A stretch of DNA of 64,000 nt. Source: Opitutia bacterium UBA3534 (GTDB lineage: Bacteria > Verrucomicrobiota > Verrucomicrobiia > Opitutales > UBA3534). Position numbers and translations under genes: made by a program. Location of the stretch: positions 185,653-249,652 of the forward strand of contig DFOT01000002.1 of the NCBI GenBank assembly GCA_002376875.1, read 5' to 3'. Of this stretch, positions 55,519 to 60,841 are shown one piece after another; the first letter of the stretch is position 1; each line of letters starts with the position of its first letter. The notes below the pieces were generated by a model that ran no database searches, was not told the origin of the DNA, and saw nothing but the letters and a program-made list of their open reading frames with translations.

Positions 55519-56334
55519 TTAAATCCTACCTACACCCTCCTCAGGCCATAAAATCGAAAAGGTACCTACCAATAATTTAAAAATTACCTTCTTCCTGGGG
55601 TCATGCGTCGTATCCTCAAACGACATCTCCTGGAGCAAAGCCTTCCGGTTAACATCACTAACCTCTGTCATCAAGCGGATACTCAATCTAAAATCAAAGG
55701 ACTTCCTCAATCCCTCCAAGTGCTCACGAGCATACTCGGCTAACAAATCCAAAACACTGCGCTGTTCATAGGTTTCCTTCCCCTCAAACACACTCGTAAG
55801 TATTAATTCATACCCTGGAAGCAAACCTTGCTTAGGCACCCTCTCAGGCGACCCACAAAAAGGGAGCACGCTCTCCATCATCGAAGGCGTACAGTCTATC
55901 ACACTAGGCCCCACATCCAACAAAGACTTCCCTAGCGTTTCAGTAGGCTCTCGGTTAATCACCAGCCAATCTCGCATCAAAGGCTCTTGCCCCTCCCCAT
56001 CAAGATCAATGCCAGCCTCAACTGTTTTATGCTCTTGGTTTTCTTTGTCCTCCTGCACACTCTGGGCATACAAAGACGCAATCGAGGGCAAAGGTGGCAA
56101 GACCGCCGCCGCTCGATTCATCAAATTCCCCATAGCACTCACCCCCCAAGAATAGTAAGATGCAGTCCCCGAAAAAGAGTCAGGGGGGCTTTCCACACTC
56201 GAAGCACTCCCCCAAAACAGCTCACGCTTATCTTCCTCTGTAAGTAAGAGAGAAGGCACGTCATCGTTTTCCCTCCCAAGCAATGCAGGGGAGCTATTCC
56301 AACGCTTATCGCTCCAAAATGAAGCTTGGTCCAT
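55519..56334 (-). CDS. orphan protein, last gene of the four-gene unit
   Basis: 271 aa. Ser-rich, disordered-looking N-half and a structured C-half. No motif recognised. Confidence 0.5.
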   Translation of the reverse strand: MDQASFWSDKRWNSSPALLGRENDDVPSLLLTEEDKRELFWGSASSVESPPDSFSGTASYYSWGVSAMGNLMNRAAAVLPPLPSIASLYAQSVQEDKENQEHKTVEAGIDLDGEGQEPLMRDWLVINREPTETLGKSLLDVGPSVIDCTPSMMESVLPFCGSPERVPKQGLLPGYELILTSVFEGKETYEQRSVLDLLAEYAREHLEGLRKSFDFRLSIRLMTEVSDVNRKALLQEMSFEDTTHDPRKKVIFKLLVGTFSILWPEEGVGRI

Positions 56335-56375
56335 GGGCTTAATCTATATCAAAAGAACCGCCCAAGCACAAGGTT

Positions 56376-59006: not shown

Positions 59007-59056
59007 AATTAAGGGGCAGAGTATGGCTAGTCCCTCCAGATGCAACCCCTAATACC

Positions 59057-60841
59057 TTAACCCCCATGGCTCAATAAGTACCTATACACCTCACCGGTGC
59101 CTCGCGGCTTCCTTTTATATATATTACAAGCATTCACCTTAGCCCCACGCTCGACCAACAGCTTCACTACTTCCAAAGAGTCCATTCCTGCTGCATAATG
59201 CAAAGGAGTTTCCTTTTTCACATTAAGTGCATCCACCTTAATCCCCTTTTGCCCTAATAAAAACTGCACAGCCCCTACCGCTCCTTTATAAGCTGCATAA
59301 TGCAAGGCTGTATCCCCTTCAATATCACCCGCATGAATCTTTGCCTTACGCTCCAATAAGACCTTCATCATATCAACTCGGTTGCCTTCAGCAGCTTGCA
59401 TGAGAGGGGTTGACCAACCCTCCTCAGTGCGCGCCTCCACATTACCCCCCGCATCAAGCAATGCAGTGAGTTTGCCTAAAGCATTCTTTTCGTAACCAAA
59501 GACACTCCTATTTTTAGTTATCTTAAGTAAGGACTGATCACGCTCATAAGCCGCTTTTTGCTCTTCTGTCTGTAGGACTAGGTAATTCTCAAGGCGTATA
59601 TGGCGGTAAATGTACTGCGTCCTGAAGTGCCAATCCAAAGTAGCCGAAGACACAGCACGCAAAAACTTATAAACATCCAAACGCACCACAGGCTCGAGTA
59701 ATTTAACAGCTGCTTGGTGCACTTCTGATTTTTTAAGTAATACATAATGCTCAAACTGCTGCTGAATATAATCCTGGCACCTTTTCTTGCCCCACTCATT
59801 ACAGTTCAAAAAGAGCGCCTTAAGAGATCTAGCCTTTTCTAAAGCCCCCATCATGCAATAGAGTACCGCCAGCATCATAATGTTCTTATTAAACGCGTAG
59901 CGATCTTCTTGCGTTTGCTCACTCGCATTAAAGCGCAATTTAACAGCTTCTTCAATTAACAGCATACGCTTCAGGATCTGCATTAACTTACGCTGATGCA
60001 GGGTATTATATTTGCCCCAGAAAGACTCTATAGTTTTCTGAATAGAAGTAAACACCTTCGCAAAGTCCGCCGTATCTTTCTTAATAAGCTTTTTCAAAGC
60101 CTCATTAATGACACCCTGCTCAAGATCGTCAGAGGAATCATAACCGCTAAGCTCAGCTGTATAAGGTATCGTAGGCAGTACTACCCTAGGCGCACTCCCT
60201 CCAACTTCGGTCAGGAGGTAATTCTCCAACTGCATGTGGGGGTAAGCCCCATCGGTCACACTAAAATAATCCAAAAGGAACTCCTGCGTATTCAAACGGG
60301 CTAAAGGCTCAAAATGAGCAATCGTCTCCTCAGACGGAGAACTCGACTCTAGCTCAAAATAAACCTCACGGTAATGCGCTATCCTTTCTAGGCAGGATTC
60401 CGGGGTCAGTGAATGGAAATCACATTCGACCTCGAGTGCATCTACTTTTGCCCTAGCCCCCAAACAGCAATAAATCCCAGCAAGATCTACTAGGCTCCTA
60501 TTAAAATCCTGCCTATCTTCTTGAGACTGCTTACTGCTATTAAAGCGTATCTTCGCAGCCTCTTCTAGAAGAACAAGCCGAGCAATAACATGTATAAATT
60601 CAGGAAAACGCTTCTCGCTACTACCCCAAGCTATTGCTCCGATCCAATTATAACAGTCACCAATCTCTCTAGAAAAATCTTCCCACCCCTTCTCAAGAAA
60701 GCCTTGCAGTGCTTTATTAATTTTGCTTTGCACCGCATCTTCTTCACAGGAAGAGCCATCATTAAGAGGAGCAGTATAGGGTACAGTAGATAATGTAATC
60801 ATAAGGGTCTTATTGAATACAACCCTACTCGCAAATGTCAA
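59057..60841 (-). CDS. ankyrin-repeat protein with a duplicated approx. 200-aa N-terminal module
   Basis: Three C-terminal ANK units (GWSTPLMQAAEGNRVDMMKVLLERKA; GDTALHYAAYKGAVGAVQFLL; KETPLHYAAGMDSLEVVKLLVERGA). The start is TTG 60841 or ATG 60802. Confidence 0.75.
   Translation of the reverse strand: MTFASRVVFNKTLMITLSTVPYTAPLNDGSSCEEDAVQSKINKALQGFLEKGWEDFSREIGDCYNWIGAIAWGSSEKRFPEFIHVIARLVLLEEAAKIRFNSSKQSQEDRQDFNRSLVDLAGIYCCLGARAKVDALEVECDFHSLTPESCLERIAHYREVYFELESSSPSEETIAHFEPLARLNTQEFLLDYFSVTDGAYPHMQLENYLLTEVGGSAPRVVLPTIPYTAELSGYDSSDDLEQGVINEALKKLIKKDTADFAKVFTSIQKTIESFWGKYNTLHQRKLMQILKRMLLIEEAVKLRFNASEQTQEDRYAFNKNIMMLAVLYCMMGALEKARSLKALFLNCNEWGKKRCQDYIQQQFEHYVLLKKSEVHQAAVKLLEPVVRLDVYKFLRAVSSATLDWHFRTQYIYRHIRLENYLVLQTEEQKAAYERDQSLLKITKNRSVFGYEKNALGKLTALLDAGGNVEARTEEGWSTPLMQAAEGNRVDMMKVLLERKAKIHAGDIEGDTALHYAAYKGAVGAVQFLLGQKGIKVDALNVKKETPLHYAAGMDSLEVVKLLVERGAKVNACNIYKRKPRGTGEVYRYLLSHGG

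Follow-up and report, generated by a model that had tools for sequence, protein, structure and literature searches.

One question raised by the genome of Opitutia bacterium UBA3534 is what to make of a tight run of long genes without annotation that follows its rluB-type pseudouridine synthase gene: a conserved functional unit, or a set of genes peculiar to one lineage. The run lies in a 64,000-nucleotide stretch of contig DFOT01000002.1 (assembly GCA_002376875.1, positions 185,653 to 249,652 of the forward strand), the whole of which is called the window here. A sequence-only reading of the window had described four co-directional minus-strand open reading frames (ORFs), namely a gene for an ankyrin-repeat protein (the ANK gene) followed by cc142, p727 and p271, as one transcription unit that encodes secreted effectors or else constitutes a conserved but undescribed functional system. 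An ORF listing bears out the four ORFs at the positions given for them (Table 1), the gaps between them (11 or 50, 18 and 41 nt) and the beginning of the unit 8 or 47 nt past the RluB-type pseudouridine synthase gene. The extent and the conservation of the unit do not hold: once an inserted gene is discounted, the co-directional run continues into a fifth orphan gene, p686, and the block ANK-cc142-p727-p271-p686 is very probably a lineage-specific insertion of five genes and ~7.4 kb (8.9 kb with the defence-gene candidate inside it).

The evidence for this insertion comes from relatives, whose loci were found by scanning metagenomes with the neighbouring CysJ-like flavoprotein (48-52% identity). 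These relatives, with 60-68% G+C, retain folD, in some cases p240, and rluB, cysJ-like, fabG, acpP and fabF, and have 210-290 nt at the place of the island. In one group (group A: L043, L045-L047) the order is a response regulator and histidine kinase pair, folD, a p240-like gene and rluB, followed by divergent cysJ-like, fabG, acpP and fabF; the p240-like ORF directly adjoins that of rluB, and the p240 homologue between rluB and folD is 24% identical and, in one of these relatives, bears an SH3_3 domain. In the other group (L040-L042, L044, L081, L086, L090-L092) rluB has the opposite orientation, with 210 nt between it and folD. It is because the relatives' rluB adjoins either the p240-like gene or folD that the five-gene block is read as an insertion. 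No similarity to the N-terminal region of the ANK protein, cc142, p727, p271 or p686 was found in the syntenic loci of the relatives (tblastn, E<=1e-3). A check proposed for the unit, co-occurrence and kept gene order in related genomes, thus came out negative: the members tested have no homologues, and the block is missing from the syntenic loci.

Both boundaries of the island are formed by conserved backbone genes. RluB, on the upstream side, shows 99.6% protein identity in the sister strain described below (ratio of nonsynonymous to synonymous substitution rates, dN/dS, 0.035) and 44-50% identity in the syntenic relatives. On the downstream side, p240 is counted as backbone rather than as an orphan, since its 24%-identical homologues occupy the same position in the group-A relatives. 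Neither a tRNA, an integrase nor flanking repeats were found at the island ends, and no Rfam family was matched. Additionally, GTDB species representatives were scanned with RluB, where the best match reached 43% identity and synteny with the window was limited to scpB-rluB.

The number of genes in the block is settled by the sister strain, a 91-kb contig (L035, labelled 3x coverage) with 97-98% DNA identity to the window. Its gene order is rluB, ANK, cc142, p727, p271, p686, p232, folD, and p686 follows p271 on the same strand after a gap of 124 nt. The segment that separates these two genes in the window is replaced by ~45 nt in L035, where the AAA_14/DUF4143 gene is missing. As the sister strain is without it, this gene is a later insertion into the island in the window's strain, in agreement with the sequence-only reading, which had regarded the flanking AAA+ gene as inserted. 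As p686 follows p271 where the inserted gene is absent, the four-gene boundary is an accident of that insertion.

The inserted gene is oriented convergently to the orphan unit, and its segment has a G+C content of 0.44, with 0.41 at third codon positions (GC3). Its product carries the Pfam domains AAA_14 and DUF4143 and matches PADLOC PDC-S01 over its full length (E=1e-140), which makes it a PDC-S01-type defence candidate. In the AT-rich region upstream of the gene, also missing in L035, positions 54208-54237 read TTTACA-18-TATAAT, like a promoter, and positions 54160-54209 form a palindrome. Together, the gene and this upstream region are a recent single-gene gain or loss within the orphan island. 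The likeness to PDC-S01 extends to the full-length match, the single-gene form and the strain-variable presence; PDC-S01 is, however, a computational candidate only, and its match here lies outside the orphan unit and is transcribed convergently to it.

Co-transcription of the orphans is supported by their arrangement on one strand with short gaps and without an internal terminator: no terminator-like site was found in the spacers between the four genes. Promoter prediction gave no sigma-70-like site on this strand between 55500 and 60900. The spacers within the block are identical between the two strains and the rluB-ANK spacer has one change, so that a single change was counted over the 156 nt of spacer, where the synonymous rate predicts 6.3 (P=0.013), with the flanking coding sequence differing by 0.6-4.5%. 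Spacers this invariant would fit conserved expression signals and co-transcription, possibly from rluB. Judged from their spacing, the five orphans appear packed tightly enough for one transcription unit. A perfect TTGACA hexamer stands directly past the rluB stop codon (~60837-60842), with a poor -10 element.

As for the novelty of the proteins, a word-index search of 5.8 billion clusters returned only the query's own cluster for p727, for p271 and for the N-terminal 436 aa of the ANK protein. For p727 the same outcome was obtained when 1.84 billion representatives were scanned in full with HMMER, and no match was found in JGI metagenome contigs or, by tblastn, in plasmids and phages. Neither p686 nor the ANK N-terminal region has a match in IMG/VR. 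Homologues of cc142 and p686 were found neither in the family libraries, in the PDB nor in the relatives' loci, nor, for p686, in viral contigs. PDB sequence searches with all five orphans gave nothing below E=0.07, and an exact-sequence look-up among ~15 billion proteins found each of the five as two alleles only. The proposal of a conserved unit, or of an undescribed functional system, therefore fails on distribution, the genes being restricted to one species and the relatives' syntenic loci being without the whole block.

The same searches confirm that the four proteins first described contain no catalytic, transport or nucleic-acid domain (Pfam, NCBIfam, PADLOC, PHROGs and PDB sequence search). 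Matches in PADLOC and PHROGs are limited to the ANK repeats (PDC-M72A, 'Ankyrin') and a few marginal ones, the strongest of which is cc142 to PADLOC PbeC (E=4.7e-4); p727 and p271 have none in PADLOC, and none of the four proteins belongs to an anti-phage system known to PADLOC. Nor were paralogues of the orphans found in the same genome within the 84 kb surveyed (the window extended by 10 kb at either end, from a scaffold of 1.26 Mb). Of the 77 genes called in this region, ~24-25 are without a Pfam match, and these lie in clusters of two to five between housekeeping genes. The sequences are new, no relatives having been found in the searches made, and the kind of locus is familiar, one of many orphan clusters in the genome.

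The ANK protein is the only member of the block with a recognizable domain. Its ankyrin repeats, reported by the sequence-only reading, are genuine and confined to the C-terminus (aa ~456-580), where ~3 repeats plus caps score far above the Pfam cut-offs (Ank_2, 92.1 bits against 27.3, E=3.3e-26; Ank, 79 bits against 21.1, E=1.3e-22). Ank_4, Ank_5 and Ank_3 likewise exceed their cut-offs, so that the protein belongs to the ankyrin-repeat family. A novel helical domain of ~200 aa makes up the N-terminal ~430 residues as two tandem copies, the product of a duplication. An AlphaFold2 model of the second copy, made with the two copies as alignment, is all helical at a mean confidence (pLDDT) of 50, and the Foldseek comparison that had been suggested, carried out with this model against the PDB, returned generic helical bundles only, the best at E=0.29.

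The first copy of the novel domain contains a hypervariable patch. Between the two strains, 19 of its 51 nucleotides and 13 of its 17 residues differ, without any indel; the changes comprise 18 nonsynonymous and 1 synonymous, and the surrounding sequence is ~98% identical (background divergence ~2%). A compensated frameshift was rejected because the nucleotide alignment shows no indel. Gene conversion, from copy 2 or from elsewhere, is unsupported because none of the DNA compared yielded a donor sequence, and a diversity-generating retroelement is unlikely because neither a reverse transcriptase nor a template repeat was seen in the window. The patch is due either to imported divergent DNA or to local diversifying selection, which two alleles cannot separate.

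The remaining orphans offer fewer handles. The second protein, cc142, had been called basic; it is acidic overall (isoelectric point, pI, 5.3). A core resembling a coiled coil (aa 28-97, window 58716-58925) comes after its one basic patch, and its matches to the coiled-coil families of Pfam all lie below threshold. A basic patch ahead of a coiled coil recalls a bZIP or a nuclear localization signal arrangement; no bZIP family is among its Pfam matches to E=0.1, and a bZIP identity is not claimed. The TPR/Sel1-like helices ascribed to p727 come down to a lone TPR stretch at aa 554-585, which scores 15.4 bits with TPR_1 (cut-off 27.8) and 15.0 with TPR_2 (cut-off 27); Sel1 has zero matches in Pfam, and p727 does not qualify as a TPR/Sel1 repeat protein. 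Its single-sequence AlphaFold2 model contains helices only and is unusable at a pLDDT of 36. The N-terminal half of p271 is Ser/Pro-rich and probably disordered, and its C-terminal half is read as a putative compact domain; p271 has zero matches in Pfam, NCBIfam, PADLOC and PHROG, and none below E=0.14 in the PDB. As a possible CesT-like chaperone, p271 was compared by BLASTP with the chaperone encoded at 46809-47288, without significant similarity (best E=2.3). The fifth protein, p686, likewise has zero matches in the family libraries (Pfam, NCBIfam, PADLOC, PHROGs) and in the PDB. Self-BLAST found no internal repeats in p727, p686 or p271, and none of the five proteins has a predicted signal peptide or membrane segment. 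ANK, cc142, p727 and p686 look helical, an impression that is model-based for p727 and the second ANK domain copy only.

That the orphans are genes at all is best judged from the differences between the two strains, which were counted by the Nei-Gojobori method as the ratio of nonsynonymous to synonymous differences (pN/pS), with P values for fewer nonsynonymous differences than under neutrality. All five ORFs are intact and of identical length in both strains, at a DNA difference of 2-3%. Purifying selection is significant in p727 (pN/pS 0.16, P=0.0016), p271 (0.29, P=9e-4), p686 (0.34, P=3e-5) and the ANK repeats (0.22, P=0.009). The ANK gene as a whole has a pN/pS of 0.66, which falls to 0.41 without the patch (P=0.005), and aa 65-200 stand at 1.12. 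For cc142 the ratio is 1.26, not significant; its nonsynonymous changes are distributed unevenly, as the 70 codons of the core contain 1 of them and the 72 terminal codons the other 12 (Fisher P=0.002). The control, eight housekeeping genes pooled from the same contigs, gives 0.013 (178 synonymous and 9 nonsynonymous differences, P=1e-102). With pN/pS at 0.16-0.41 against 0.013, the orphan genes are real but weakly constrained, under purifying selection ~10-50x weaker than that on neighbouring housekeeping genes. Sequencing error in the 3x L035 contig is not the cause, as its housekeeping genes are nearly free of nonsynonymous differences.

Taken together, the best overall explanation is a species-restricted accessory island of five orphans whose products are exported binding or adaptor proteins, a reading that we hold tentatively and put somewhat short of an even chance. 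In this scheme, five orphan genes were inserted between rluB and the exported-protein gene/folD in an otherwise conserved housekeeping backbone, and a PDC-S01-type candidate defence gene later landed within the island in the window's strain. The products, soluble and non-enzymatic, would serve as binding or adaptor proteins that engage the proteins of some other organism, be it grazer, host or prey. Targets would be bound through the ankyrin module, and the duplicated novel domain, which carries the hypervariable patch, would offer a specificity surface able to adapt fast. Export would take a non-Sec route, possibly a type III system. The reading as exported binding or adaptor proteins draws on the fast evolution, on the CesT-like chaperone gene nearby and, in the ANK protein, on the ankyrin module and the hypervariable patch, and further support comes from the genome region, which is rich in similar orphans and holds Sel1 and ANK genes. 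Taken by itself, the claim that the orphan proteins are exported interaction or effector proteins is plausible but doubtful. In its boldest form, with the five orphans as a self-contained module, invented or captured in one marine lineage, that deals with other organisms such as a protist grazer, host or phage, the ANK patch under diversifying selection, and p727, p271, p686 and cc142 as new folds in complex with ANK, the proposal is improbable.

Several observations weigh against this explanation. The strain comparison rests on two strains, the sister contig being labelled 3x coverage, and cc142 and the first ANK domain copy show no detectable purifying selection overall. The AlphaFold2 models of p727 and of the ANK domain are of low confidence and therefore give no fold-level support. 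The orphan N-termini, polar, Ser/Thr/Asn-rich and without Sec signals, are compatible with type III secretion and not specific to it. No gene for the apparatus of a type III secretion system (T3SS; sct) or for another secretion apparatus was seen in the 84 kb, where the sole secretion-related gene is the CesT/SicP-like chaperone gene, ~8 kb from the block and with a dN of 0 between the strains. This gene adjoins not the orphan block but another, strain-variable gene, p339, and so no dedicated chaperone gene lies beside the orphans, as would be expected of type III effectors. The product of p339 (47343-48362, plus strand, directly downstream of the CesT-like gene) has 339 aa, a pI of ~10 and a single hydrophobic segment at its N-terminus, and the family libraries gave no homologue of it; window positions 47346-48336 are missing from L035, and p339 could be the chaperone's cognate substrate.

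The setting of the organism also counts against dealings with a host. The window is identical to part of a Tara Oceans scaffold (ERZ2782963, sample SAMEA2623059, TARA_SAMEA2623059_METAG-scaffold_1), and the sequence recurs in several other assemblies. That sample is described as surface water of the North Pacific from 5 m depth, in the 0.22-3 µm fraction (bioRxiv 10.1101/2025.06.17.660233). The relatives carry GH16 and BNR_4 genes and, from this gene content, look like a free-living glycan-degrading lineage. Genes for LptE, BamD and fatty-acid synthesis lie in the 84-kb region itself, together with those for PAS histidine kinases, HD-GYP/HDOD regulators and several ABC importers. The size fraction, the relatives' genes, the PAS kinases, HD-GYP and the ABC importers suit a free-living planktonic cell.

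The nearest rival, and the one favoured by the sequence-only reading, is a four-gene operon of type III secreted effectors in a host-associated, T3SS-bearing bacterium. It shares with the exported-adaptor explanation the CesT/SicP-like chaperone gene, the ANK module, the polar N-termini without Sec signal or transmembrane segment and the raised pN/pS that is usual for effectors, and the short, nearly invariant gaps suit an operon. This rival is nevertheless unlikely: the unit comprises five orphans rather than four, no T3SS apparatus gene lies in the 84 kb, the chaperone gene is not within the block, the sample is a 0.22-3 µm fraction, the relatives look free-living, and the NCBIfam Ank-effector models match the ANK repeats only, far under their cut-offs.

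A second rival, which ranks next and is also unlikely, places the proteins inside their own cell in a structural, cytoskeletal, scaffold or regulatory role, with the ANK module binding a bacterial partner. Soluble proteins that are helical where modelled and have no export signal would suit such a role, as would the high share of similar orphans, roughly one gene in three, in this part of the genome. Moreover, the block sits in what is the relatives' housekeeping rluB-folD run, and for this reason its expression is probably constitutive. Restriction to one species and a pN/pS 12-50x that of housekeeping genes argue, however, against a core cellular role, and the hypervariability of the ANK patch suggests a partner that is external and changing.

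That the block is recently acquired or decaying DNA, with ORFs of little or no function drifting to loss, is very improbable. The ratios above 1 in cc142 and in aa 65-200 of the ANK protein, the failure of the searches made to find homologues and a GC3 of ANK and cc142 below that of the housekeeping genes would all be expected of such DNA; against this stand the five long ORFs (142-727 aa), each unbroken and unchanged in length between the strains, the significant purifying selection on p727, p271, p686, the ANK repeats and the cc142 core, and the conserved spacers. Least probable of all, and scarcely credible, is an undescribed multi-gene system such as anti-phage defence with the four or five genes as components, since the tight co-directional packing, the fast evolution, the ANK-containing defence candidates in PADLOC and the insertion of a PDC-S01 candidate into the block in one strain, as in defence islands, are set against the lack of any ATPase, nuclease, protease, TIR, SIR2 or other effector or sensor domain, PADLOC matches limited to the ANK repeats, relatives without the block and a co-occurrence that cannot be shown for members without homologues.

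In function, the nearest analogues of the block are the ANK-containing effectors and the sets of eukaryotic-like proteins known from host-associated bacteria. Ankyrin-repeat effectors of intracellular bacteria include the Dot/Icm substrates AnkH, AnkY, AnkG and AnkX of Legionella and the Anks of Coxiella, Anaplasma and Orientia. Like the ANK protein described here, they combine a short ANK module with a lineage-specific domain that has no relatives, are without enzymatic motifs, evolve fast and have unknown neighbours. The present protein scores, however, only 18-47 bits with the NCBIfam models AnkH, AnkY, AnkG, AnkX and AnkC, against cut-offs of 450-1400, and through its repeats only; the best equivalog score, 47.4 bits against a cut-off of 600, does not place it among the Dot/Icm Ank effectors. 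It further differs from them in that the organism appears planktonic, no type IV secretion system or T3SS was seen in the 84 kb, and the duplicated N-terminal domain is new.

Sets of eukaryotic-like proteins (ANK, TPR, Sel1) in marine symbionts and in amoeba- or grazer-associated bacteria are usually inferred to deal with eukaryotic cells. The genome region resembles them in that ANK and Sel1 proteins are scattered among many orphans, but it holds one ANK gene in 84 kb, the TPR of p727 is not established, and nothing seen points to a host. In structure, the block resembles the ORFan islets of flexible genomes, which likewise lie between backbone genes, are missing in relatives, have a slightly atypical composition, evolve fast and show strain-level gain or loss inside and beside them (here the AAA gene and p339). 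The block differs from such islets in that no integrase, tRNA or flanking repeats accompany it and in that the island is common to both known strains. Thus, the locus behaves as an ordinary lineage-specific accessory island, a flexible-genome islet, and not as a conserved new system.

Other observations concern the surroundings of the island. Further clusters of two to four orphans occur in the window (20335-25566 and 40631-44494) and in two other contigs (L037, 11798-17974; L036, 12088-16893), and some of their orphans have faint or clear Sel1 repeats (767 aa, 755 aa). One of these orphans, an ORF at 40631-42604 (minus strand, 657 aa), evolves faster still than the island orphans: the last piece aligned between the window and L035 (41274-42622), which lies over it, has 88% DNA identity against 96-98% elsewhere. 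A 26-nt alignment gap is found in the intergenic spacer just ahead of this piece. Relatives have insertions of their own at neighbouring sites (L091, 8524-9936; L038, 1151-2158 and 3812-5146, with GH16, VTT-rhodanese and BNR_4), and the backbone seems to accumulate accessory genes repeatedly. In L035, folD (13839-14740) is split into two ORFs of 175 and 124 aa, probably through an assembly indel rather than as a pseudogene.

Table 1. Features of the orphan island and its flanks (positions in the window).
Feature	Coordinates	Strand	Description
rluB	60850..61521	-	rluB-type pseudouridine synthase gene; Pfam PseudoU_synth_2 + S4; NCBIfam TIGR00093, 138 bits
ANK gene	59057..60841	-	594 aa from TTG at 60841; 581 aa from ATG at 60802 (public gene calls)
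ANK, novel domain copy 1	60206..60799	-	33% identity to copy 2, BLASTP E=4e-34
ANK, hypervariable patch of copy 1	60611..60661	-	aa 48-64 of the 581-aa protein
ANK, novel domain copy 2	59570..60184	-	Compared with copy 1 by BLASTP; modelled by AlphaFold2
ANK, repeat module	59102..59476	-	Ank_2 E=3e-26
cc142	58578..59006	-	142 aa from ATG at 59006; longer ORF 58578-59045, 155 aa
p727	56376..58559	-	727-aa acidic orphan, all-helical in the model
p271	55519..56334	-	271-aa orphan
AAA_14/DUF4143 insertion segment	54048..55498	+	Coding sequence 54256-55497
p686	51928..53988	-	686-aa protein, apparently helical; fifth orphan of the island
p240	51110..51832	-	Exported protein; Sec signal peptide (N-terminal hydrophobic segment)
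folD	50197..51099	-	Pfam THF_DHG_CYH; 60-63% identical in syntenic relatives; conserved backbone
CesT/SicP-like chaperone gene	46809..47288	+	PF05932; NCBIfam SicP E=5.8e-7, under the curated cut-off

The value of this analysis is mainly corrective, in that the block has five genes rather than four, is not a conserved unit and is one of many orphan clusters. Should the block indeed mediate contact with a grazer, host or phage, it would be a case of abundant planktonic bacteria assembling such functions out of lineage-specific proteins for which no database offers an annotation. In that case, the ANK protein would be a tractable entry point, as a known binding module fused to a hypervariable new domain.

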